This document shows positions 3,601-20,043 of a stretch of 64,000 nt of DNA, piece after piece. Each line of letters opens with the position of its first letter. The stretch's first letter is position 1. Position numbers and translations under genes: made by a program. This DNA is from Candidatus Poribacteria bacterium WGA-3G. GTDB taxonomy: Bacteria; Poribacteria; WGA-4E; WGA-3G. The DNA is taken from assembly GCA_000406005.1 (NCBI GenBank), contig ASZN01000008.1, forward strand, positions 19,327 through 83,326, in the 5' to 3' direction. The notes beneath the pieces were generated by a model. The model had not been told where the DNA came from, searched no databases, and was given only the letters and a program-made list of their open reading frames with translations.

Positions 3601-3949
3601 TTACAGATTGTCGCGTTGGAAGCGGAAGACACCGTTTTGCTGAGTGCCGATGTAGAAGGTCCGACCCTCAACGGCAAACGCGGTTGCAGGGTGCGGTAGT
3701 TCTGCGGCGATCTGTTTCCAGGCGTGGGTCTGTTTATCCGCCGCATAGATACCACTATCACAGGCACCGTAAACCGTTGTAAGCCTTGAGAAAAACATCC
3801 TGCGTGAGTTCCTCAGCGATATGGAAATCACCGATCTTACGCCAAACGAGGGCGTGCACCGATTTCTGGTATTTATTGACGAGCGTGGTAAACGCGTCTT
3901 GATCGCCATCTAAAACGCGTTGAATGAGATCTACATCATTTGCCTTCAT
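3601..3949 (-). pseudogene. Internally deleted remnant of an ECF-sigma/beta-propeller fusion gene (paralog of 26232..29126)
   Basis: 3758..3949 encodes MKANDVDLIQRVLDGDQDAFTTLVNKYQKSVHALVWRKIGDFHIAEELTQDVFLKAY, which aligns with MVDDNVQLIRRILSGDDEAFSILMRKHQKGVHALIWRKIEDFHVAEEITQDTFIQVY. A shift into another frame then gives TTVYGACDSGIYAADKQTHAWKQIAAELP...GRTFYIGTQQNGVFRFQRDNL*, which aligns with the last blade TTIYGVSDSGAYRLDADSKWELLSSEVP...GRLYVGTRDHGMFHISLEE of the full-length gene. Confidence 0.75.
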
Positions 3950-4106
3950 TTCTATCTCCTCACAGAAAATATAGGTTTCATAATATAGTGACGCTCGTAA
4001 AAGTCGAAATGTTGCATAAAGTGTGTATTATGCAAAGATTCACGAAAAAATGCATACATTGTTAAACGAAATAACTCACGGATGTTCATCGCTAAAGCAG
4101 CAAAAA

Positions 4107-4904
4107 TTATTCCGGATTGTCTCCTGCATTCTCTAATATTAAATTAAACAACTCCTCAAGTTCACCTTCAACACATGTCTCTTTCTTACGACTAATAGCA
4201 ACACCAAAAGGCTCTCCATTATCTACGACTTCTTTAAAAACATTATATCTACACAAGAAATATTCTGTAGGTTGTAAAACATATTGTGCCCTTAAATACT
4301 CAACATACTCTTTTTTATTTTCATCTGTAGCGATACGCCATCCACCAAATTTTTCCTTTTTCTGGCCCTCAGCAACGATATGAACCTCTGGTATATCTCC
4401 GTGCTGACGCATCAATGTTTCTGTGTAAAGTTTAACAAACAGTTCTGGATCATCTGTTTCACGCCATATTTTTTGCTTTTGGGTATCTTCCAAAACTTTA
4501 CGATTTGATTCATTGGGCCATAAAAGGTAGTGTGCTTTCGCGCGCAAAATTAAATCTTCAATTGAAGTTTCAGTCGGTTTACCGTCAGCTAACAGCGATA
4601 ACCTATAAAATATAGCCACTATGTGGACCGCTGGTATATCACCAAATTGCTGTATCAGCACTGCATGATAGTATTTGGCTTTCAATTCTGGGTCTTTTTC
4701 CTCATACCAGTCTCCAGGGAAATTAAGATTTAGAAGTTCTTTTACCTGCTCATCCGTAATTTCATAGAGTGATTCGCTTGTGTCGTAATACCTATCCGGT
4801 AACTCAACAGATAATATCGGTTCTGTATCTTCTTCTACCTCGCCACACCCTAAAAAATTGAGTCCGATAAGTAAACAGAAAAAGTACGTTAGTATACCTC
4901 TCAT
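4107..4904 (-). CDS. Hypothetical lipoprotein with two internal repeats carrying a (Q/K)(F/H)GDIPxVHIVA motif
   Basis: Start trimmed to ATG 4904 (GGAGGTATA RBS). Lipoprotein-type signal MRGILTYFFCLLIGLNFLGC. Internal duplication (LIQQFGDIPAVHIVA / LMRQHGDIPEVHIVA). AT-rich relative to neighbours. Confidence 0.6.
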   Translation of the reverse strand: MRGILTYFFCLLIGLNFLGCGEVEEDTEPILSVELPDRYYDTSESLYEITDEQVKELLNLNFPGDWYEEKDPELKAKYYHAVLIQQFGDIPAVHIVAIFYRLSLLADGKPTETSIEDLILRAKAHYLLWPNESNRKVLEDTQKQKIWRETDDPELFVKLYTETLMRQHGDIPEVHIVAEGQKKEKFGGWRIATDENKKEYVEYLRAQYVLQPTEYFLCRYNVFKEVVDNGEPFGVAISRKKETCVEGELEELFNLILENAGDNPE

Positions 4905-5240
4905 CTGCTTTATACCTCCAAACTGCTTAATGAACTGAGCCTGATAATATACATAACGTGAGTTTGATAAAAGTTTGATTATGTAGCGTCCACTGTTAAT
5001 TTTGCGCTGTATAGCCCACAAACTAACAGTTTGTGCTACGATTCACGGTTCTGTGATGCGGAAATAGAACCGGCAACACATCCGAAATGATTAATCAAAC
5101 TGGCGTTATACATAATACAACTCTGTACCTTTAGTTTTATATCAATCTTTTGGTGGGTACTGTTCACTATTTTCTTCGCTATTTACCGCGTTGTTTTCTG
5201 TTAGTGAGGCGAAATCATTATTAGACCGAAAACGCTCGGA

Positions 5241-7232
5241 TTAAGAACCTATCACGGGTTTCAGGTCCCAGAGGAGGATGGTGCTGTCAAAACTGCCACT
5301 CGCCAAAAGTGTACCATCTGGTGAAAACGCGAGATCTTGGACATCGGTGGGGTGCCCCCAGAAGGTGGCGATGTTTTCGCCGGTGGCAACTTCCCATAAG
5401 CGAATAGGCACCTTTTCTGTTTCTACGCCCCTATGCCACCATGCACCAGAAGCAAGATATTTCCCACAAGGTGAAAACGCCAAGGCACGCGGGTAACAAC
5501 TGGGGTGTGTATGAGGAAGAGTCAAGAGAGTTCGACAACTATTGATATCCCACAATCGGATTTGGTTTAGCATGCCACACGCGATCTTGTGACCGCAAGG
5601 TGAAAACGCGACAGTATAGACAGGGTTGACACGGAACTCCGGATTTTCTTTCCCTGTATCGATGTCCCATAGATTTGCCATCGTGCCAGAAGAACTCGGA
5701 ACACTTACAAGGTGTTTACCGTCGTGGCTGAATATAAGGCGGCTGATCTTATCATCATCCCAATTCCCTTCTAAGGGGAGAGTGTGTGTGAGTACACAGC
5801 GCACGTCACCACTTCTCATATCCCATACATACAGATGCCCTTTGCTATCCGCGCAGGCGATGAGATGTCGTAGCGGGGCGTGTGCAGCGGCAGTCACCAC
5901 TGCCTCTGGGTCGGGAAGTGTAAATGTCATAGATGTCGTGTTTTCGTCGGTTTCCCCAATTTTAACGGTTATTTTAACACTGTTTTTATCATACGCAAAC
6001 GCTGTCGAGTGAATTTTCTCTGAAATGAACACAAAAACGGCTTGTGGGTCATCGGATATTTTGAAAAAAGTTGGTGGTTGCATAGGGTTGGCAATATCCC
6101 AGAAGAGTGTGCTTCCATACTTTCCGGCTGCCAACTTTTTGCCATCTTGTGAGAACGCTACGGAATTCGGAGTACCATTGACATGTAAATAAGGCAACTT
6201 GCGGGGGTTGGTATCCCCGGGCGACCACACTGCCCATTCCTTGGCACCAGCAACGACAAAATGCGAACTGCTTGAAAAAAGTGCTTCATCAATCTCCCAT
6301 TCCTTTTCAACGTACGTGTAGCGTTTTTCATGACGTTCCACGTCCCACACGACGACAGTGTTTCTTTCCAGATCATTTTCCAGAGTATGAAGAACGCCTT
6401 CTTGTGAATAGCAGACACTCATGCGAGCGGTGGCATCATAGTTCTGATAGACTCCCTCTTGTTCCCAAGTCTTCACATTCCATACTTGCACTGTGCCTTT
6501 ATCGCCGCCGATGGCCAGCGTTTGTCCACAAGGTGAAAAGCAGAGGCTGCGCACAAAGCTCGGTTGTTCGGTAAGACAGGCGATGCACTCACCGGTTACG
6601 ACATCCCAGACCAAAACAACATCGGGGCCATCCGTTGTCCCGGCGGGAGCCGTACACGCCAGCAGACGACTGTCTGGCGAAAAAGCAACGGGTCGAGGGA
6701 GGGAGGGGTAAGAACTGCGTGTTTCTCTTTGGGGGTCATGGAACGTAGCCAGCGGTGTGCCGGTTCTGGGGTTCCAGGTGTAGACAATCTCACAACGGCT
6801 ACCCGTTGCGGCCAGGTGCTGGTTATCAGGTGAAAAGGCAAGAGACTGAATTGCAGTCGTCCTAGGGACTGGCTCTTTTAACCCTGGCCGCACAATTTTT
6901 GTAATGCAGGTGCTCCGCTGGATATCCCACACTTTGATAACACCATCCCAGCTGCCGGTCGCAGCCAATCGCCCATCATGAGAAATCGTAATGGCACCCA
7001 GCATCCCCCGTTGTGTTTCCCATAAAGCAACAGGTTGCATTGTCGCGAGGTCATACCACCATAACCCAATTTTGGTTGCAACTGCGAGGTATGTACCATC
7101 CGGTGATACTGCCATCGCCATCACAACTCCATGCCCGAACCGAGAAATCGCACCCTCTGGTAAAGCCCAACTCATGGGATGACCTTTGTCATCGACAATG
7201 GGTGTGGCCCTGTTTTTTCTGCCATTTATCAT
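5241..7232 (-). CDS. WD40 repeat protein
   Basis: Many WD blades (AFSPDG..LASGS.D.T..LWD). Start trimmed to ATG 7232 after AGGAGG. N-terminal [14 protein letters not shown] and the C-terminal blade are shared with 17903..19897. Confidence 0.85.
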   Translation of the reverse strand: [663 protein letters not shown]

Positions 7233-7558
7233 GTTCCTCCTAAAAACTATCCGTTCTAATACCATTTCTGAATAAACATGCGTCCAACACTATCTTATAT
7301 AGACCCGTTTTTTACGCCCTTTGCGTGCGAAAAACGCAGTGTGCTATCATATACACATTCGTGGATGCACTTTGCACGAGGGCATCCATGAAAATTAACG
7401 TGAGTTTGATGGGACTTACGGATTTTTTTTACGAGTTCCGACGCGATATAGGATGCGGAGCGGGGTTACAAACCCCGCCTGCATACGGGTTGCGTAAGTC
7501 CTGTTAAAAAAAAAGAAATGTCTCAGACCCAGGGCCGGTAGGTTCGGTTTGATGAAGA

Positions 7559-8686
7559 TTAATTTTCCACTACAGAAATTCGTGCTTTAAAGGCGTTGAT
7601 ATGTCCCTTCTCGCCGTACCAATCGCCTGTAGCACCAAATTTAAAAACGCTCCCTCGTGCGAAACGATGTCTGATTTTTCCTGCTTCACCGGGTCCAATT
7701 CCCCACGCCGAGTTAAGCGCGATATCGGGATAACCTTCTGTCGGCAGTTCGGTGTCACCATCAAAGAGATCAAACGAACCGAAAATGTCAGCATCCCCGA
7801 CACGGATATCAATAATTAATGTCCCACTGCCTTCAAACGCTGTCGTATCAATATTGATGACAGTGTAGTCCTGATAACCGGTGCCGGGTGCCCGAAAAGC
7901 GTTTAATATTTCCTGTGAGGGCTGTGCCTTGTCAAGTACAAGACGCAACTCACTTAATGGCATTTCTGGGATGTTCTCATCCGATTCAGGATTCTCTTTT
8001 TCTTCGGATTCCACTTGTGGATATTCCGCTACAGAAATTTTTGCTTTAAAAGCGTTTATACTTCCTTTCTCACTTCTACCGTAACACCCGGTAGCACCTA
8101 ATCTAAAAAACGTGCCTCGGTCAAAACGATGTGCAAGTTGCCCTGTCTCATCAGGCTCAATCCATGCAGAAGCAAGTCTCTTATCTTTAGGCACCCGTTC
8201 ATCCATAGGAAGCTCGCTGTCACCATCAAACAAATAGAAGTGCCCTTCCGCATCCGCTCTACCAGTTTCAATATCAACGGTTAGTGTGCCGCCATTTTCA
8301 AACGCCCTTGCGTCAATGACAACAATGGTGTAATCCTGATAGCCAACCGTCGGGGTTCGAAAAAAATCTAAGACATCCTGAGAAGGTTCTTCACTGTTCA
8401 GAATGATGTTTCCCAATCCGGGCTGTTTTCCCTCCAAGGACTCCTTGAGAAACATAAGGTAACTCTCCTCGTCTCGGCGTTTAAATTTATTCCAATTGTC
8501 GTCGAAGAATTCGTTGACAAGCAGTCTGCCCATCAGTTCAAACTCTGGTGATATGACGAAACAATCCACGGGTGAACCTTTTTTCGGTCCGGTCTTCCAT
8601 CCCTTTATAATTGCTTGTGCTAACGGGTGGCTTGTGTCAAACGTCTTACCCTCGCGCTCGCGTCTTTTGGCAATCGGTTCCCGCAA
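7559..8686 (-). CDS. C-terminal portion of a thioredoxin-fold protein plus two tandem ~135-aa domains; probably continuous with 8804..9580 through an in-frame UGA
   Basis: The ORF-track start is a TTG with no RBS. The reading frame stays open upstream to the TGA at 8804-8806 (GSGKGLRAGALSDDQNIEFLNENFINTWIADAELGRIHSL precedes REPIAKRR). There is an internal duplication: ...GYQDYT(I/V)..ID..AFE..GTL..DI..G.A...F.LFDGD.ELP...INAFKA(K/R)ISV. Confidence 0.6.
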   Translation of the reverse strand: MREPIAKRREREGKTFDTSHPLAQAIIKGWKTGPKKGSPVDCFVISPEFELMGRLLVNEFFDDNWNKFKRRDEESYLMFLKESLEGKQPGLGNIILNSEEPSQDVLDFFRTPTVGYQDYTIVVIDARAFENGGTLTVDIETGRADAEGHFYLFDGDSELPMDERVPKDKRLASAWIEPDETGQLAHRFDRGTFFRLGATGCYGRSEKGSINAFKAKISVAEYPQVESEEKENPESDENIPEMPLSELRLVLDKAQPSQEILNAFRAPGTGYQDYTVINIDTTAFEGSGTLIIDIRVGDADIFGSFDLFDGDTELPTEGYPDIALNSAWGIGPGEAGKIRHRFARGSVFKFGATGDWYGEKGHINAFKARISVVEN

Positions 8687-8768
8687 ACTGTGGATACGCC
8701 CTAATTCTGCATCTGCTATCCAAGTGTTGATAAAATTTTCGTTCAGGAATTCAATGTTTTGATCATCA

Positions 8769-8806
8769 GAGAGAGCACCTGCCCTCAGGCCTTTGCCACT
8801 CCCTCA
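8769..8806 (-). promoter_or_regulatory. In-frame UGA plus candidate bacterial SECIS-like hairpin
   Basis: mRNA: UGA GGGAGUGGCAAAGGCCUGAGGGCAGGUGCUCUC. Hand-folded pairs are G1-C35, G2.U34, G3-C33, A4-U32, G5-C31, (U6 bulge), G7.U30 and G8-C29. After an internal loop come G14.U27, C15-G26, C16-G25, U17-A24 and G18-C23. The G-rich apical loop AGGG lies at +19..+22 from the UGA. Confidence 0.45.
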
Positions 8807-9580
8807 GCAGGATTCGTCTGCAAGCGGTCCACCTGATGAAATGGCGTGAATTGGTTTCTGCAATATAGGTGCTAATTCCAACGCTTTCTCCAGCGATACC
8901 CAGTTAATTTGTGCCGACTTGTAAAAACGTAACATCAGTGCTTGCAATGTTTCCTCTTGGATGATCGCTTCTGTGAATTTAGCATCTTGTAAAACGTCTT
9001 GTTTTCCTGCGCAGAGTTCCATTTGCGGGCAAAAGCCGATGTCCGCTCCGCAGAGTCCATCTCTAATTCTCCACCGTGCATCAAAGTTCAGTGTGGCTTC
9101 TGGAACGTGCATCTTAAAGGCGGCAACTCTCTTTTCGACCCGATCAATCACCAGATGTCCGGCAAACTGTGATGGCGCAAACCAACCTTTTTCTAAGACG
9201 AATTCCGCGTGAATACGGAACAGAATCTCAGCAAACGCATCATTGTAGGCGCGTAGACATGCCCACAAACCGAAAGAATCCGCTCCAGCAACGTCTAACT
9301 CCAATTGTGGATTTGGACTGAGTTGCCGCAGCAGCGTTAGTGCGCCTTCTTCTTCAATCTGCCAGCATTCACTGACCGAAACCGGTTCCTGTGGCAAAAA
9401 TGCTTGAAAAACAGAGACAGGATATTGCTTCTCCGGTTCAGCAGCCTTTAGATTCGCCAATTCGTCCCAATCCACGTGATAGTCGCGTTGCGTGTATTCA
9501 ATCGGGGCGATGAAGCCTTTGACAGACACTTCTGCATCACCGTCAAGGTTAAGTGCAATTTTATTGTTGAAAGTTTTCAT
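8804..9580 (-). CDS. N-terminal portion of the same protein; terminates at a TGA inside a thioredoxin-like active-site motif
   Basis: ATG 9580 with AAGGAAG RBS. The C-terminal end INWVSLEKALELAPILQKPIHAISSGGPLADESC-TGA resembles the W..l..Al..A....KPi.......adWC start of Thioredoxin_7/DsbD-like domains. Confidence 0.65.
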   Translation of the reverse strand: MKTFNNKIALNLDGDAEVSVKGFIAPIEYTQRDYHVDWDELANLKAAEPEKQYPVSVFQAFLPQEPVSVSECWQIEEEGALTLLRQLSPNPQLELDVAGADSFGLWACLRAYNDAFAEILFRIHAEFVLEKGWFAPSQFAGHLVIDRVEKRVAAFKMHVPEATLNFDARWRIRDGLCGADIGFCPQMELCAGKQDVLQDAKFTEAIIQEETLQALMLRFYKSAQINWVSLEKALELAPILQKPIHAISSGGPLADESC

Positions 9581-9714
9581 TTCTTTTCTAAACTTCCTTT
9601 TCAGTATAGGATATTATCATCTATACACAAAATTGGATGCACTTCTACGGGTTATCAAGGCTTCTTTTGTACCATAGGAAACCGTTAGTTTGTGGGTTCG
9701 GTTGCAAACCGCAC

Positions 9715-10079: not shown

Positions 10080-10926
10080 TCATTTTATGAGGTTAACTGC
10101 GAGTTTAGGTTCTGAAGCAAAAAGTTGAAGTGCGTCGGTGATTTTTGTATGTCCAGTGAATCGTAAAACAGAGAGTGCTGTGTTTCGCATGGCTGCCATG
10201 ACTTGAGGGATAACCCCTGTTCGGACGCATGACGCATCTTCTTGAAAGACGGTATCTCGGACCCAGTGGAGTTTATTCTCAATCGTTCAATGCTCTCGCC
10301 GGAGTTTGAGCAAGTCAGCTGCTGAGGCCCGTTCGGGTGTCAGACTTGTGATACCATACTGCACGTGGCACTTGATCTGTGCTGTTTTTTTTACACTTTT
10401 GGTGTGTGGTGTATTGATAAACTTGCTGGAGTCCGGGCCAGTCGGTGTGTTCCGTCAAGAGTGTGCTTGCGGTGAGGGTGCGTGTGGTCGTCCTACCTTT
10501 TGCGTCTTCTGCGTGAAGGTTTTCAAAGCGGCGTTGGTTGACTTCAGGGGGATCTGTTTCATCAAGGGGTTCAAAGAGGTCTCGAATATCTTCAAACAAC
10601 TGCTTCTGATTCGCTTTCACGGGGAGGCAGTCATCTGCTTGACGGTCAAGGATTTCTTGACAAAACTTGCGTTGCGTCAAAAGTGCGTCCGTGGTGATGA
10701 CGAGACCTGTGACATCAAACGCCTTCAGGAGTTCAATGGAAATAGGGATTTCATTGGTCTTTTCACTCACGGCACATTCTGCGATAGGGATGCCTAACTC
10801 ATGAAGAACCGCTGCGAGGAGATGTGTCCTACGGGCATCTTCGGTATGACTGTTGCCTAAGGTCTTGCCATTTATGGCAAGTCCCTTCAAGTCAGCCATG
10901 GATATGCTTACGGGACTAATTAGCAC
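10080..10926 (-). mobile_element. ISAs1-family transposase remnant (5'-truncated, frameshifted, one nonsense codon)
   Basis: 10315..10926 gives LAINGKTLGNS...EKTNEIPISIELLKAFDVTGLVITTDALLTQRKFCQEILDRQADDCLPVKANQKQLFEDI, the ISAs1 DDE core. After a frameshift, own translation gives YGITSLTPERASAADLLKLRREH*TIENKLHWVRDTVFQEDASCVRTGVIPQVMAAMRNTALSVLRF...LIK*, the ISAs1 C-terminus. A TGA (10287-10289) replaces the conserved Trp. The N-terminal third is missing. Confidence 0.8.
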
Positions 10927-11245: not shown

Positions 11246-11887
11246 TTAATGGCCCTTTTCACCTTCTCGCGTATCGCGTAGGACTTCCTGATACCTTTCT
11301 TCATTTTCTTGGCTTGGAAATAGGACACTGATCGCTTTCACGTACGCAAGATTTTCCTCAGCAGTCATAATGACTTCATTACCATCTTCCGCATTTTGTG
11401 CAGCTCTGAATGGAAAATACTTCAGAAATATATCTATTTCCGGTATATCCCCATGTTTCGCTATTAAAGCCTTCCTGTTTCTTTCAATTAACTCTTCAAC
11501 TGGTATTTCAGAGAAGTGCGGTTCAGGTTCAGGCGCGGGTTTAGTTGGGTCTAACTTCAGAGAATCACCCAAATCATTATTGGCAGCTTGTCTGGCTTGT
11601 TGTTCCTTAGCAGATTTTACAATCTCAGTTTCATTGTGAATTCTCTGTGTGGTCGGCGAGTAATGATCTCCTTCTGAACGGCTTTGTTTTGGGTCTCGTT
11701 CGACCTGTGTATGTTGTGTAACAACATGTTCAGGTGATTTTTCTGTTTTTGTCTCTATCCTTTTGGTTTGTTTTATTGGACGGTTAGGTAAGCTTTTTTC
11801 AAATTCATTCAATCTATATTCTGTATAGGCATAGAAACCTGCTAATATAACAACCATTGCTATTACGATGTACACTGCATTTCTCAC
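11246..11887 (-). CDS. Hypothetical membrane-anchored protein (KHGDIPEI motif family)
   Basis: N-terminal TM helix AVYIVIAMVVILAGFYAY, a charged linker, then a C-terminal LIAKHGDIPEIDIFLKYF...AYVKAISVLFPSQENE segment resembling the repeats of 4107..4904. AT-rich. Confidence 0.55.
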   Translation of the reverse strand: MRNAVYIVIAMVVILAGFYAYTEYRLNEFEKSLPNRPIKQTKRIETKTEKSPEHVVTQHTQVERDPKQSRSEGDHYSPTTQRIHNETEIVKSAKEQQARQAANNDLGDSLKLDPTKPAPEPEPHFSEIPVEELIERNRKALIAKHGDIPEIDIFLKYFPFRAAQNAEDGNEVIMTAEENLAYVKAISVLFPSQENEERYQEVLRDTREGEKGH

Positions 11888-12297: not shown

Positions 12298-13482
12298 TTA
12301 CTTCGGCGCGGGCTGACGGTTTGGGGTGCCTTTTTCAAGTTGCGTTTCAAGTTGCGCCGCAATATCGGGATCCTCCGCTTTGAGCCTACGCAAGCCTTCT
12401 TCGCGACCATATTGCTGCAAAAGTTGTTGGGCACGATTCGCGCGTTCTTGGAAACTCTTCTTCGGTTCTACAACCTCACCCTCAGTAATTTCATTTGGGA
12501 GTGGCGTTATTCCAGCGTGTTCATGCATGCCGGCAGCCTCATGTTCCATATCTATTGTGTGAGCGGATGGAATTGGATTCGGTGGCGGCGGTTCTGCTTG
12601 AATTGTTGCCATCTCATCGCGCAGTTTTTCCTGGACAGTAGGATAATCACTTTCGTTGAGCATCGCGTTTAAAGTCACTGAGTCGTCGGGTAGAAGTTCA
12701 AGTGCCTCAAAGAAGGTATTGTATTTAAAATCTATACGCGTGTCGGTATCTCGGAAATTTTGTTCTGAAAGCGGCGCGTCCCTTGGGTACGCCCCCATTT
12801 TCATCTTTTCGTGATAGTATTCCTCAACAATTGCCGATTCATCAGGGGCATTTTCTTTCATCCATGTTCGAAGGTATCTTATCGGTTCAGTCTGACGAGT
12901 CACCTCAGAGCCCTCCTGATTCCACCTATTTGCCAGACGGGACCTTTCAAGTCTTGTCTGCTCTTCTTCAGTTAACCCGAAGAGTTCCTCTTTCAGTTCC
13001 AGAAACCGTTGCGCCTCCAATGGTGGTAGGACGGTGCTATTTGGTCGGATCTTTACGCCTTCCGGGGGCTGCGGTATCAAGCTATGTCCAATGAGATGAT
13101 AATATTCGGTCATTTTTGGGTCACCCTCCCCAAGCTCTATTGCGATGGCATGCATTTTCTCAATGGCCAGTTCCGGGGACGTATCTTTTAGTTTCATCGC
13201 TGGCGCGAAAGCAGCTAAAATGCCCTTGTCACTCAGCACCGTGGGCGGATCACTCTTTTTACCTTCCGCTTCTATGACGTTTTCTGTTTCCTCAGTCGTT
13301 TCACTCTCAGGAGATTGTGTTGTATCCTCTGGTCCGTGACTATGCGGGGTGCCTCCTGGGTGCGTATGAACATTTGGATCTACTTTCGCCGCCTCTTTCT
13401 CACAACCCGAGCACCCTAACAAAGTTAGCAGCGGTGTCAAAAGAAGGAAAGAAAAGACAATTCTTACGATATCTTTTTTCAC
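12298..13482 (-). CDS. Hypothetical lipoprotein
   Basis: Start trimmed to GTG 13482 (GGAGGG RBS 9 nt upstream). Signal VKKDIVRIVFSFLLLTPLLTLLGC with a lipobox Cys, followed by a His/Pro/Glu-rich linker. Downstream of a sigma-54-type promoter at 13748-13763. Confidence 0.6.
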   Translation of the reverse strand: MKKDIVRIVFSFLLLTPLLTLLGCSGCEKEAAKVDPNVHTHPGGTPHSHGPEDTTQSPESETTEETENVIEAEGKKSDPPTVLSDKGILAAFAPAMKLKDTSPELAIEKMHAIAIELGEGDPKMTEYYHLIGHSLIPQPPEGVKIRPNSTVLPPLEAQRFLELKEELFGLTEEEQTRLERSRLANRWNQEGSEVTRQTEPIRYLRTWMKENAPDESAIVEEYYHEKMKMGAYPRDAPLSEQNFRDTDTRIDFKYNTFFEALELLPDDSVTLNAMLNESDYPTVQEKLRDEMATIQAEPPPPNPIPSAHTIDMEHEAAGMHEHAGITPLPNEITEGEVVEPKKSFQERANRAQQLLQQYGREEGLRRLKAEDPDIAAQLETQLEKGTPNRQPAPK

Positions 13483-13569
13483 TTTGTAAAACCCTCCTAT
13501 CTGAATATGTAAATGAACAACTCTTTTTTTCTTATTCACACCCATAAAAAAAAAAGTTCCAATCAAATT

Positions 13570-14251: not shown

Positions 14252-15193
14252 TTATGGTGTTTTTTGTTGTCTTTTCACACGCCTATTCAAAGCAAAGGCA
14301 ACACCCGCCAGAATTATTTCCGCCGACAACATCCATATCCGACACAACAGTGCGACGAGGGTCGCTTGCGGTGCTGGCATGTAGTTTGCTAATAAGAGTC
14401 CTAAAAGCCCTTCCCGAATGCCCAATCCACCCGGGGTTAGGAAACTTAAAAACCCGATGACCCACGCAAAAGCAAAGCAGGCGGTGAGAACGCCAGCGTC
14501 TGTCCACTGGACAGGTGCGAAACTTTGGACAAAGAGGAAAAAGGCGAACCCTTGGCATATCCACAGCAGGATGTGTCCCGCGATAACGTTCATCCAAAGT
14601 CTTGAATGTTGTCCGAGTGATGTGAGTGTTTTGAGGAACTCCCGCGCGTGGGTGGATACCTTTGGAATCAGAAACAGGGTTCCTATGAGAATACCGATGC
14701 AAACGAGGCTCAAAAGCGTAGTATGTCCTGATATTTTATCAAGCATGCCTACTGCGGTGTCCCGCATTTTCGGTGAAAAGAGGAGTGATAAACCGATAAG
14801 TCCACCGAGTGCGGTTTCAATCCCGACGTGTAAGGTCAGGCTACTGCCGACAGCCGTTTTGCTGATTCCGAACTGATGGCTGAGCGCGAGGAGTCTCACG
14901 ACACCCCATATCCGTCCGGGGAGGTAGCGTGTGATGTTCGCAAGATGGAAGAGCGTGAAGGCGTTACGAAAAGGGACATGTTTTTCTGTGATACCGCTGA
15001 GAAGTGTTGCAAAGGGATTAAGATAAACGCTCCAATAAAAGAGTATCGCACCGAAAGAGCAAACCAACCAACCCCAATGTATTTGAAATGTGGCATCCTT
15101 GAGTTCGATGCGCGTCTGTAAAAACGGTTTAATGAGAAAATAGAGGAGTATCCCGGCGATAAGATATCCGAGAGATTGTCGGAGTGTTTTCAT
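14252..15193 (-). CDS. Flippase-like / lysylphosphatidylglycerol-synthase TM-region (UPF0104) family membrane protein
   Basis: Start trimmed to ATG 15193 (MKTLRQSLGYLIAG). Multi-pass membrane protein with the family motif FLTPGGLGIREG. Confidence 0.75.
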   Translation of the reverse strand: MKTLRQSLGYLIAGILLYFLIKPFLQTRIELKDATFQIHWGWLVCSFGAILFYWSVYLNPFATLLSGITEKHVPFRNAFTLFHLANITRYLPGRIWGVVRLLALSHQFGISKTAVGSSLTLHVGIETALGGLIGLSLLFSPKMRDTAVGMLDKISGHTTLLSLVCIGILIGTLFLIPKVSTHAREFLKTLTSLGQHSRLWMNVIAGHILLWICQGFAFFLFVQSFAPVQWTDAGVLTACFAFAWVIGFLSFLTPGGLGIREGLLGLLLANYMPAPQATLVALLCRIWMLSAEIILAGVAFALNRRVKRQQKTP

Positions 15194-15239
15194 TCGTTTC
15201 TCAAAGCGATGATCAGTTCGCCTAAAAGCCCGATAGCAC

Positions 15240-16259
15240 TTAGGAGGATACCGGTGAGGATGCCGAGCCCACCGAGGTACCCAATTGCATCCAAACGTAC
15301 CCAAGTGCAAGTGCAAAACTTGCAAGCACTAACCCAAGAGACAGATTTCTGGCGTGTGGACGGAGTTTTTCTGCAAGCGATGATTTGGTGATTAGGAAGT
15401 GTCGGAGGGCTCGAATCCCTAATAGAACAAGTGGTGGCATCAGCACAAAGGCAAATAGGTGCTTTGTGAAACCCTCTCCACTCCGATAGGCAGGCGATGC
15501 CAGGTAAAGCGTCGGCACAAAAGTGCCTACCCACAAGGAATATAGTCGCAATCCTTTATCTTCCTCGGAGGTAATAAACCTCCAGAGTTCCATAACGAGG
15601 ATGACACTAACGAACACGCCGAAGCCTTCCCAACTCATACCCCCGAGGAAAATAGAGAAACCTGAAGCGAGCGTTAAGAACAGTCGCCAGCGAGACGATT
15701 GCGTCTGTAGGGACGCAAGATAGGTTGTGACTGCGAAAATTCCTAACATCAGACACCAGCTGTCCCTATCGCTGAAGCCCGCGGCACTGCGTTCAACGAT
15801 ACCGGGGAGCGTTGCTAAAAATATACCAACGATGCTTGAAAAGAGCAAACCAAAGCTCCGGAAAAGGAAAAGGCAAAGCACAGCTAACCCTAACACAAAA
15901 CAGACAGCAGGCGAAAACAGTGAGACCTGATAGAGAGAGACATTCGGAAAGAGAACTTTGATTGCTTTGTGCGTGTAAGCGACACCGTAAGCGTACGCAT
16001 TCAGACTTTGTTCATAGTCTCTGCCGAGGGGGAGCCAGCGGCGCATATCGCGCGCGGGCAGCCTGCCCTGTTCAGACACGATTTGCGCTTGCCAATAGTG
16101 GACGTACGGATCGTTTCCGGTAAATTGTCCTTCCGGAATGTTCGGAACGCCTTGAATGCGAATATAGAAGGCAACGATCAGAATAGCACCCAAGAGTACC
16201 CACGGAAGGAAGGCACGTGCGGGTTTCCAAAGCGGTATTAATTTTTCTAAATACTTCAT
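15240..16259 (-). CDS. Polytopic membrane protein resembling the N-terminal membrane domain of STT3/AglB- or GT39-type glycosyltransferases; apparently C-terminally truncated
   Basis: TM-rich with GNDPYVHYW, WLPLGRD and GFSDRDSW loop motifs reminiscent of GT-C enzymes. At 339 aa it is about half the usual length, and the 3' end runs into a GT2 C-terminal remnant in another frame. Confidence 0.45.
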   Translation of the reverse strand: MKYLEKLIPLWKPARAFLPWVLLGAILIVAFYIRIQGVPNIPEGQFTGNDPYVHYWQAQIVSEQGRLPARDMRRWLPLGRDYEQSLNAYAYGVAYTHKAIKVLFPNVSLYQVSLFSPAVCFVLGLAVLCLFLFRSFGLLFSSIVGIFLATLPGIVERSAAGFSDRDSWCLMLGIFAVTTYLASLQTQSSRWRLFLTLASGFSIFLGGMSWEGFGVFVSVILVMELWRFITSEEDKGLRLYSLWVGTFVPTLYLASPAYRSGEGFTKHLFAFVLMPPLVLLGIRALRHFLITKSSLAEKLRPHARNLSLGLVLASFALALGYVWMQLGTSVGSASSPVSS

Positions 16260-17902: not shown

Positions 17903-19897
17903 TTATAAGTAAGGCTTCATATCCCAGAGGAGGAGAGTGCCATCATAGCTGCCGCTCACCAAAAGCGTGCCATCCGGTGAAAACGCGAGATCCTGAACGT
18001 CCGTAGAATGTCCCCAAAAGGTAGCAATATTCTCACCGGTGGCAACTTCCCATAAACGGATAGACATCTGATCCGTATCTATCCAAGACGCGCCGGAAAC
18101 GAGATACCGTCCACAAGGTGAAAATGTTAACGCCCCCACCCGTTGACATCCGTGTGGTGGACAGAACACTTTGAGGACTTCGTACGTTGTCGCATCCCAT
18201 AAGCGAATTTCGCCAAGGAGCCCGCCGGCGATGACAGTCCTACAGGGGGAAAAAATAATTGGACCTACCACCCGTTTAGGGGGACGTTCGACAGTTTTCT
18301 CTAACCGACGGAGATAAGCTTGAACGCTACGGGCATCGCCTCTATACTTTGCGGGCTCTATCTCTTTTGCTAAGCATAACTTTACTAACAACTGACCGTT
18401 TTCAACATCCCGGAGTTCTGCTTGTTTTCCGTTGAAGTCCGCAACCGCTATCTGTTTTCCTTCCGGAGAGACAGATAGAGAATCTATGCGATTTATTCCG
18501 ACAGGTAAAGCAGTCCGTTTTTTTTCGCCATCCCATACATACAGATGTCCATTCGCATTTGCACAGACCAGCCCGTCGCCGCTGGGTAAAAATGCGACGT
18601 GCCATAGCCCGGCTGCTCTCTTATCTTCTTTATGAGATTCTTTGAACTCAGCGAGGGGCGCGTCGACGTTCTCAATGTCCCATATTCTGATTGCCGCATC
18701 GTTTGAGCCAGAAGCAAGGTATTTTCCACAAGGCGAAAAATCAAGAGAGTCCCGGCGGATAGACGCTTTGCTTGCACCGAACGCTTTGAGTCGTTTTAAC
18801 CGATCAACATCCCAGAGGTGGATGTTACCGTTCCAATGCCCGGCAGCCAAAATCTTTCCATTTGGTGAAAATGTCACAGCCCCACACACCCAGGTATATT
18901 CACGAATAGAGAGACTCTGTTTTCGGGGTAAAGTTTCCTTAATATCCCATATCTGAATCTCATCCTTCCCTCCTAGTGCCAGTTGTAAAGTCTGAGGTGA
19001 AAAGCATAGAGGATAGGTACACCGTTCACTTCTTAAACTCCGCAACTTGTCCCCACGTTTCGGATCCCAGAGGGTAACCGTGCTCTCATGATTCCCGGCG
19101 GCAATGAAGGTGCCATCGGTTAAATACGCGAGTTTCGGAACACCCTTCGCGTACGTCGGCAGCTCTGAGAAGCCAACAGGGGATGCCCTTTCCGCAATTT
19201 TGTGAACATCCCATTCATGCAAGATGCCGTTTATGTCCGCAGAAGTTAGGAACTGACCACATGGAGAAAAGATAAGTTCGGCAACAAGAGCGACATGTCC
19301 CTTCAGACAAGCGATACGTTCTTTCGCCTCAAGATCCCATATAGAAATCGTATGCTCAGGGGTTGCCCCTGCGAGTAATTTCCCATCGGGCGAAAAGGAG
19401 AGCGGAATGAAACCGGGACGAAACCGCGGTTTCAGGGATTCATCAACGGTGAATTCTGCGACCTGTTCTCCGGTTTTGTGATGCCAGACGTAAACGGCAT
19501 CGTATCGCCCGCCAGAAGAGGCTAAGCGTTGCCCATCTGGAGAGAAGACGAGTCGGTTGACACGATTACATCTCCCAACTCGCTCCATTTTGGAAACGTA
19601 CCGCTGGGTGTGTCTGTCCCACACTTTGACATCGCCATCTTGATTGCCGATCGCGATCAGAGCATCATTCGGGGAAAATGCGACTTGAGTAATAAAACCG
19701 CGTTCTGTAGCCAACACATCAAAAGGGATCAGTGTGGCGGCATCGTACAGCCAGACACCTAAACGACTCCAGGTGGCGACTGTGCTCTCATCCAAAAAGG
19801 TTATGCCTGAAAAGATCCCTTGCCCCAGTCGGGCAATCGCGCCCTCGGGGAGTGCCCAAAGGGACACATCTGCAGAGCGTTTTTGATTCTCCATCAT
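17903..19897 (-). CDS. WD40 repeat protein (paralog of 5241..7232)
   Basis: WD blades throughout. Start trimmed to ATG 19897 (AAGGTGG RBS). The last blade, RLWEVATGENIATFWGHSTDVQDLAFSPDGTLLVSGSYDGTLLLWDMKP, is nearly identical to that of the paralog. Confidence 0.85.
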   Translation of the reverse strand: MMENQKRSADVSLWALPEGAIARLGQGIFSGITFLDESTVATWSRLGVWLYDAATLIPFDVLATERGFITQVAFSPNDALIAIGNQDGDVKVWDRHTQRYVSKMERVGRCNRVNRLVFSPDGQRLASSGGRYDAVYVWHHKTGEQVAEFTVDESLKPRFRPGFIPLSFSPDGKLLAGATPEHTISIWDLEAKERIACLKGHVALVAELIFSPCGQFLTSADINGILHEWDVHKIAERASPVGFSELPTYAKGVPKLAYLTDGTFIAAGNHESTVTLWDPKRGDKLRSLRSERCTYPLCFSPQTLQLALGGKDEIQIWDIKETLPRKQSLSIREYTWVCGAVTFSPNGKILAAGHWNGNIHLWDVDRLKRLKAFGASKASIRRDSLDFSPCGKYLASGSNDAAIRIWDIENVDAPLAEFKESHKEDKRAAGLWHVAFLPSGDGLVCANANGHLYVWDGEKKRTALPVGINRIDSLSVSPEGKQIAVADFNGKQAELRDVENGQLLVKLCLAKEIEPAKYRGDARSVQAYLRRLEKTVERPPKRVVGPIIFSPCRTVIAGGLLGEIRLWDATTYEVLKVFCPPHGCQRVGALTFSPCGRYLVSGASWIDTDQMSIRLWEVATGENIATFWGHSTDVQDLAFSPDGTLLVSGSYDGTLLLWDMKPYL

Positions 19898-20043
19898 ATC
19901 AACCACCTTTTTTCGCGGAGATAACAAGAGTGGACTGTCCATCTAAAACTTATGATCTATTCGTGGTGTTCTGTCCAATTTCAAATTGATGGAACGTTCA
20001 TAGTCGTGCGATTCATCGCACGACTACAAACCTATCTACTTAT

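Follow-up and report, generated by a model that had tools for sequence, protein, structure and literature searches.

Introduction

Human selenoprotein N (SelN), encoded by SELENON, is a 590-residue protein of the endoplasmic reticulum (ER) with an EF-hand, in which selenocysteine (Sec, U) occupies an SCUG motif that runs on into GSGR; pathogenic changes are known at Sec462 and Arg466. The gene is mutated in congenital myopathies, and the substrates, catalytic cycle and structure of the protein are poorly defined. The SelN literature compares SCUG with the GCUG motif of thioredoxin reductase. Sponge and Nematostella are among the reported carriers of SelN, and of six invertebrate genomes in a metazoan survey, five contained it, each as a single copy. 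Here we analysed a stretch of 64,000 nucleotides from Candidatus Poribacteria bacterium WGA-3G (contig ASZN01000008.1, positions 19,327 to 83,326), referred to below as the window. On its minus strand, at 9580..7559, lies one gene that very probably encodes a 673-residue cytoplasmic selenoprotein, a bacterial homolog of SELENON, with an internal UGA predicted to be read as Sec.

In bacteria, the hairpin that directs Sec insertion, the bacterial selenocysteine insertion sequence (bSECIS), has been modelled by Zhang and Gladyshev (via PMC13188914) with a loop of 3-9 nucleotides (nt), a stem of 4-16 bp, a G at loop position 1 or 2 followed by G or U, a distance of 16-37 nt from the UGA, and a minimum free energy of -7.5 kcal/mol or lower. 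A SelN-like family is missing from a 2026 catalogue of 119 prokaryotic selenoprotein families, which is also silent on SELENON in prokaryotes. No description of a bacterial or Poribacteria SelN was found in the open-access literature, and no NCBIfam model matches the family at E up to 10. Structural work on SelN may reportedly have mentioned bacterial SelN-like sequences.

Results

A Single 673-Codon Frame Interrupted by One UGA

The listing of open reading frames (ORFs) and the translation showed that the gene is a single frame of 673 codons, 9580..7559 on the minus strand (to which all window coordinates of genes and features given below refer), with an ATG at 9580, a terminal TAA at 7561..7559, and the TGA at 8806..8804 as its sole internal stop. 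Translation of the longer stretch 9700..7559 likewise gave one internal stop. The sequence around this codon is ...KPIHAISSGGPLADESC-TGA-GSGKGLRAGALSDDQNIEFLNENFINTW..., the upstream end reading PLADESC. The frame comprises an ORF of 258 codons with an ATG start (8804..9580) and a second ORF in the identical frame (7559..8686), thus bearing out the first-pass annotation, which had joined the two into one product of about 673 amino acids (aa). The unsplit relatives P0027, P0035 and P0069 align with the read-through coding sequence (7559..9580, with the proposed Sec at codon 259) over its full length. Upstream of the gene, an AAGGAAG at 9593..9599, 12-18 nt 5′ of the ATG, resembles a Shine-Dalgarno sequence and is a possible ribosome-binding candidate, judged by sequence only and with a rather long spacing.

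Past the TGA, the earliest in-frame ATG, GTG or TTG is the TTG at 8686, so that a stretch of 39 codons (8687..8803) without any potential start separates the two ORFs, and the downstream ORF indeed lacks a start of its own, as had been supposed. These 39 codons are conserved in the family, with R266, L270, S271, D273, N280, N282, F283, N285, T286 and W287 invariant. A scan of the whole window revealed no other pair of ORFs joined by one in-frame TGA with both sides exceeding 250 codons (269 + 414 here). At the same time, TGA closes 11 of the 43 long ORFs in the window, next to 23 closed by TAA and 9 by TAG; as TGA acts here as an ordinary stop, the genetic code is not reassigned, and general TGA reassignment was ruled out.

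The Stop Is Always TGA, in the Same Column

Homologs were collected by scanning one genome per GTDB species, which yielded 265 relatives; 73 loci were kept, all bearing Poribacteria in their titles except for three named 'uncultured bacterium', and the copies were counted over these loci together with the window. Copies recognized by the block NxNF[IVL]NTW numbered 161, each with a stop 22 codons upstream of the block, and this stop is TGA in 161/161 copies read and never TAA or TAG. A looser pattern recovered 224 copies, in which the residue pair at the site is C-U in 223 and C-S (codon TCA) in one. The family motif may be written as DE[SAG]C-U-G[ST]G[KR]; the residues straight after the stop are conserved as G-[ST]-G-[KR]-x-L-R, and conservation among homologs is thus seen on either side of the TGA column. 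The column itself is conserved far beyond chance. The question put in the first-pass annotation, whether homologs carry Cys or an in-frame TGA at this place, was answered in the affirmative, five distant relatives having Cys there (see below).

The same split is seen in protein databases. A search with the read-through sequence retrieved more than 100 proteins of 375-410 residues that correspond to the post-TGA part only, at 50-90% identity, and those of them that are named come from Candidatus Poribacteria. The upstream ORF retrieved 1,684 clusters, and the top 120 of these all measure about 258-260 residues and terminate at the same Cys. When the family profile was run against representatives at 50% identity, 755 proteins were matched, and dozens of divergent representatives have either their last residue at profile position 308 or their first residue at position 315; because they stop or start exactly there, the split is kept even in very divergent members.

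Gene callers divide every family copy into two 'hypothetical protein' halves, and every public annotation calls two ORFs, so one may ask whether translation simply ends at the TGA, with the downstream part being made alone (two separate genes) or never (a pseudogene). Some copies do possess a TTG five residues past the TGA, which gene callers use as a start. However, this codon is CTG in 86 of 156 unique copies, including the window, and the conserved GSGK.LR precedes any possible start, the window being start-free for 39 codons. At the border of two genes, the stop would be expected to vary among the three stop codons, and a start codon would be required; a column occupied by TGA only therefore argues against a boundary. 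Furthermore, a break at this point would cut inside a single thioredoxin-like domain, whereas the unsplit Cys, Gly and Trp relatives run straight through it, and a pseudogene would not persist in this form in 223 diverged copies. We therefore regard two genes or a pseudogene as very unlikely. That the TGA might be a sequencing or assembly error, as is possible in general for any single sequence, is next to inconceivable here, for the same codon recurs in assemblies produced independently, from dozens of samples and laboratories, complete long-read chromosomes among them.

The gene is one of the many tandem paralogs that form this family in Candidatus Poribacteria, which are sponge symbionts. 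The family is present, for example, in the complete Poribacteria chromosomes OX638352.1, OZ244821.1 and OZ220722.1. Up to six tandem copies were found in 14.6 kb (locus L032, 1208-10971). In one protein, P0095 (541 aa), the post-TGA part of one copy is fused to the pre-TGA part of the next and ends in ...DDESC.

A Short AGGU Hairpin Follows the UGA

The RNAalifold consensus contains a 6-bp stem at +20..+35 (counting from the T of the TGA) with the loop AGGU at +26..+29. In the window, this SECIS-like hairpin is located at 8771..8786, its 5′ arm GAGGGC at 8786..8781, the loop AGGU at 8780..8777 and the 3′ arm GCUCUC at 8776..8771. The stem begins 17 nt and the loop 23 nt after the UGA, and the energy of the hairpin is -8.6 kcal/mol. 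With its 4-nt loop, 6-bp stem, G at loop position 2, 23 nt from UGA to loop and energy of -8.6 kcal/mol, the hairpin falls within the bSECIS model outlined above.

Covariation was evaluated on 143 distinct homologous 60-mers against 500 column shuffles and slid controls. The results showed covariation: 94.5% of cells pair in the AGGU hairpin vs. 91.8% in the shuffles, none of the 500 shuffles reaching this value, while the slid control structures pair at 43-81%. Compensatory cells numbered 23 vs. 7.6 expected (0/500 shuffles), and every whole-structure measure that counts cells lay above all 500 shuffles. For instance, the pair 23-32 is G-C in 78 sequences, G-U in 18 and A-U in 20, and is never A-C. 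Synonymous sites within the hairpin stretch are frozen, Ala being encoded by GCA in 156/156 unique sequences and Arg always by AGR, whereas comparable synonymous sites upstream of this stretch vary freely. Moreover, copies with differing amino acids (Glu or Arg codons) retain a hairpin through a register shift.

The first-pass annotation had likewise placed a SECIS-like hairpin directly 3′ of the UGA, and in this respect it was right; the form that it proposed, a 35-nt bulged hairpin (+2..+38) with the loop AGGG at +19..+22, did not stand up to the data. This long hairpin folds no better than shuffled sequence (z = -0.13), it pairs at 84.0% vs. 84.6% in the shuffles (500/500 at least as good, over the same 143 sequences), and compensatory changes in it are almost nil. 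Given the shuffled-fold z and the absence of covariation, the AGGG hairpin was rejected as a SECIS.

The gene thus resembles known bacterial selenoprotein genes with a bSECIS in having, downstream of an in-frame UGA, a small stem-loop whose loop has G at position 2 and then G or U, and in that Cys homologs exist; it differs from them in that a lower stem or internal loop finds no support here. At gathering thresholds, Rfam gave no match over the whole window, SECIS included.

The fate of the hairpin was also followed in relatives that have another codon at the Sec column. In a Gly-form paralog (GGC; L074, about 3920-3990), the stem is kept and the loop reads AACU, the loop G being lost. In the Trp form (TGG) and the Cys form (TGT), the hairpin is absent at the corresponding place (L076 and L077 compared). 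The lone Poribacteria copy with TCA (Ser), in L005 at about 4370-4440, has the AGGU hairpin intact, so that either Sec was lost here very recently or the codon was misread in sequencing. In the Gly, Trp and Cys forms, the hairpin changes along with the codon at the Sec column.

The Protein Is Homologous to Animal Selenoprotein N

In a library of 1.84 billion proteins, the family profile matched a protein of Nematostella vectensis (E = 2.7e-32) and a protein of the wombat Vombatus ursinus (E = 3.0e-28). A direct BLASTP comparison of the window protein with the wombat protein gave E 2e-26 and 31% identity over 218 residues, with query residues 104-287 covered, that is, from the beta-rich domain through the Sec site. 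Both animal proteins read WGALDDQSC..SGRTLRE...LLNEKFISTW, the UGA having been skipped in their gene models. On these sequence grounds, we consider the window protein to be a bacterial homolog of animal SelN, the homology being clear and extending to the motif; this identity had been missed in the first-pass annotation.

The likeness comprises three features: Sec stands at the same column, in S-C-U-G-S-G-K in the window protein and S-C-U-G-S-G-R in SelN; the homology is significant across both the beta-rich and thioredoxin-like domains; and the downstream block LN..F..TW is conserved. The differences are no less distinct. Unlike SelN, the window protein has no transmembrane anchor, signal peptide or glycosylated ER-lumen context, and no EF-hand (no EF-hand Pfam match was obtained), while the bacterial protein possesses one or two extra C-terminal beta-sandwich domains. 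Its hairpin is of the bacterial type and lies inside the coding sequence, whereas the animal SECIS is in the 3′ untranslated region, and the bacterial gene occurs in many tandem paralogs. The identity is only about 30%, and the window protein is no closer to the animal proteins than other bacterial relatives are: over the shared core, the identity of the animal proteins to each bacterial group lies at 24-34%. Such uniformity gives no sign of a recent transfer from host to symbiont, and an origin of the gene by recent transfer from the sponge host is therefore not supported.

Domain Architecture and Predicted Fold

A structure was modelled with AlphaFold (AF2) for P0027, a full-length paralog of the Gly form that shares 60% identity with the window protein, on an alignment of 119 rows. 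The model has a mean predicted local distance difference test score (pLDDT) of 85 and a predicted TM-score (pTM) of 0.69, and consists of three parts: a beta-rich N-terminal domain, a middle domain and a C-terminal beta-sandwich. The alignment and the model agree with the domain plan originally drawn, that is, an N-terminal domain, a thioredoxin-like domain and two repeats of about 130 aa. In the window protein, the N-terminal domain (about aa 1-210; 8951..9580) is the one shared with animal SELENON according to the wombat BLASTP alignment; it is confidently modelled as beta-rich and has no signal peptide. It is followed by the thioredoxin-like domain (about aa 208-388; 8417..8959), in which Cys258-Sec259 are predicted to lie at a helix N-terminus, and by two copies of the beta-sandwich domain, about aa 392-516 (8033..8407) and about aa 541-673 (7562..7960), seen as an internal repeat in the alignment and supported by the model and by Foldseek. 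Most paralogs have one copy of this C-terminal domain; two copies are present in a minority that includes the window gene. A hydrophobic N-terminus is absent in 222/223 Sec-form copies, and the Sec forms are therefore probably cytoplasmic.

The middle domain of the P0027 model is ordered beta-alpha-beta-alpha-beta-beta-alpha, with pLDDT mostly above 90, and Cys308 together with residue 309 of the Sec column directly precedes the helix 310-317. When this domain was compared with the PDB by Foldseek, the structures 7tkv and 3ira of the Thioredox_DsbH type were retrieved with probability 1.00 and E of about 4e-4, whereas the C-terminal domain resembled the ColH collagen-binding domain, CBM6 and C-CPE. 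No PDB entry was matched significantly by the family in a sequence search. Pfam, searched at E up to 10 with the central domain and full-length paralogs, contained no matching family, Thioredoxin_7/DsbD included. Hence, of the earlier assignment to a Thioredoxin_7/DsbD-type domain, the thioredoxin-like fold is retained on the strength of the predicted structure, and the match to the Pfam model is not. The UGA does adjoin a Cys in the redox motif of a predicted thioredoxin-like domain, as had been proposed, the C-U pair being that of the 223 copies mentioned above and the fold being that of the model and Foldseek.

With the Thioredox_DsbH/DUF255/Thioredoxin_7 proteins (7tkv, 3ira), the window protein shares a similar predicted fold and redox residues placed at the N-terminal end of the first helix, which follows strand 1; with 3ira, it also shares the pattern W...A...A....KP.......C....... 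...F... It differs from these proteins in its motif, C-U-G-S-G rather than C-x-x-C, and in leaving their Pfam models unmatched. A profile search of the PDB aligned the family to 3ira weakly and non-significantly (E = 1.3), with the Sec column on the first Cys of C-H-W-C and the Gly on the second; in such an alignment, the partner thiol would be that of the preceding Cys. Adjacent Cys and Sec, which may form a selenenylsulfide, are likewise found in the GCUG of thioredoxin reductase and in the 'CU' selenoproteins SaoL, SaoC, HgcA and MbdU. Unlike in those proteins, the motif of the window protein is internal rather than C-terminal, there is no flavoprotein domain, and no sequence similarity was found.

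Relatives without Sec and Their Sigma-Factor Neighbours

Five unsplit distant bacterial relatives (P0249, P0253, P0260, P0268 and P0299) read DESC-C-GSGK, the codon at the Sec column being TGT in P0249. One further representative that runs through the site reads C-A. The Gly and Trp forms carry signal peptides.

Several exported relatives without Sec are linked to sigma factors of the extracytoplasmic function (ECF) type (loci L074, 1630-4674; L075, 1630-4674; L076, 6796-9254; and the protein P0253). The Gly-form P0027 is encoded 48 nt downstream of a 440-aa Sigma70_r2/r4_2 gene, and the Cys-Cys protein P0249, 176 nt downstream of a 342-aa ECF sigma gene; in P0253, a single protein of 668 aa, the ECF sigma domain is fused to the SelN-like domain. 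Such adjacency and fusion suggest a sensor or anti-sigma-like role for the exported non-Sec relatives.

Sec Machinery and the Identity of the Inserted Residue

The data presented so far argue that the UGA is translated, and the residue inserted might in principle be other than Sec. One alternative would be Cys, for which a tRNA resembling tRNA(ReC) would use SelB and this hairpin; another would be Trp or Gly, delivered by a suppressor tRNA. Decoding of a SECIS-linked UGA as Cys by tRNA(ReC) has been reported in some bacteria, and in paralogs lacking the TGA the column is occupied by Gly, Trp or Ser, whose codons each differ from TGA by a single base. Against this, SelA and SelD, which are needed only for Sec synthesis, are reported in Poribacteria along with SelB. 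In Supplementary Table S4 of Slaby et al. 2017 (PMC5649159), the COG counts of SelA, SelB and SelD are 2, 1 and 1 for the Poribacteria bin70; 4, 1 and 2 for bin44; and 2, 1 and 1 for the single-cell genome of Ca. Poribacteria WGA-3G. Poribacteria also figure in a 2026 study as one of the phyla possessing Sec-type group 4 [NiFeSe] hydrogenases. Furthermore, the homologous animal protein has Sec at exactly the same residue, and TGA functioning as an ordinary stop elsewhere in the window rules out general reassignment. Taken together, these results make non-Sec decoding improbable, and we conclude that Sec is by far the best candidate for residue 259.

ARAGORN found zero tRNA genes of any kind in about 1 Mb of Poribacteria sequence (the window and loci L001-L073), which is below random expectation; this scarcity is probably due to the loci being homologous neighbourhoods.

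Discussion

In this work, we described a bacterial gene whose product was very probably missed as a selenoprotein. The protein family and the Sec motif were already known from animals; the bacterial form differs in its decoding signal, its architecture, its cellular location and its copy number.

Several observations weigh against our interpretation. Within Poribacteria, the non-Sec paralogs have Gly, Trp or Ser at the Sec column and not Cys, which is unusual for the loss of Sec. Both animal proteins matched by the profile bear only the database name 'EF-hand domain-containing protein', and their identity as SelN rests on the motif, the length, the EF-hand and the description in the literature. 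The structure model is that of the 60%-identical Gly-form paralog P0027 and not of the window protein itself. A permissive Rfam search of 8700..8840 gave chance matches to snoRNA and miRNA families only and none to a SECIS family, and the single-sequence thermodynamics of the region is unremarkable (the z of -0.13 given above). ARAGORN detected no tRNA-Sec either in the window or across the related 14-kb loci, which total about 1 Mb. Finally, the catalytic mechanism is proposed by analogy only.

With these reservations, the synthesis of the protein may be pictured on the basis of the established bacterial mechanism. On arrival of the ribosome at the UGA in codon 259, the 6-bp AGGU hairpin located 17 nt downstream would recruit SelB with Sec-tRNA(Sec); Sec would be inserted, and translation would proceed through the remainder of the thioredoxin-like domain and the two beta-sandwich domains. 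By analogy with SELENON and other redox centres of the Cys-Sec or thioredoxin-fold kind, Sec259 would occupy the position of the attacking Cys of CxxC at the N-terminus of the first helix. Cys258 and Sec259 may then form a reversible selenenylsulfide, such that the protein could act as a thiol/selenol oxidoreductase on thiols or disulfides or as a redox sensor, while the beta-sandwich domains may bind a partner or a substrate.

A broader picture can be put forward, to which we give no more credence than to its opposite. According to it, the gene would represent an undescribed prokaryotic selenoprotein family in Candidatus Poribacteria, the counterpart of the human disease protein SELENON, in which the Cys-Sec centre is kept and decoded by a bacterial in-frame SECIS. 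As the family numbers over 1,600 sequence clusters and its tandem arrays reach six paralogs per 14 kb, it would place Poribacteria among the bacteria richest in selenoprotein genes. The wider family, comprising exported Cys-Cys forms beside or fused to ECF sigma factors, would act as an extracytoplasmic redox sensor, and the membrane-anchored, lumen-facing animal SelN would share its ancestry and perhaps its logic.

For structural and enzymological studies, a bacterial homolog that is soluble and shares the Cys-Sec motif would be a tractable system, with hundreds of natural variants at hand, including Cys, Gly and Trp forms. The Poribacteria copies also supply a clean SECIS consensus for these organisms. 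In addition, the family would add to the prokaryotic selenoproteome a large group that current annotation pipelines systematically split, and it points to heavy use of selenium in a dominant phylum of sponge symbionts.

Annotation and Neighbourhood of the Gene in the Window

The fragments produced by this splitting are named in NCBI either 'hypothetical protein' or 'BrnA antitoxin family protein', the latter name being given to the C-terminal fragment (window ORF 7559-8686 and protein P0007). The match to the BrnA antitoxin family, PF14384, scores 17.5 bits against a cut-off of 26.1, with E = 0.0054, and covers 16 residues; as this sub-threshold match of 16 residues is the only support for it, the name is spurious, and the assignment was rejected.

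Among other minus-strand genes of the window, Pfam at E <= 0.001 contained no family for the products of 10315-10926, 11246-11887, 12298-13566, 14252-15325 and 4107-5021 (200-420 aa). In the product of 15240-16259, Pfam recognized the N-terminal domain of STT3 oligosaccharyl transferase (E = 1e-14). The region is flanked by genes for WD40 beta-propeller proteins with eukaryote-like repeats, 5241-7265 and 17903-19942 (674 and 679 aa, respectively); the 2017 study (PMC5649159) gave high counts of WD40 COGs for its Poribacteria bins.

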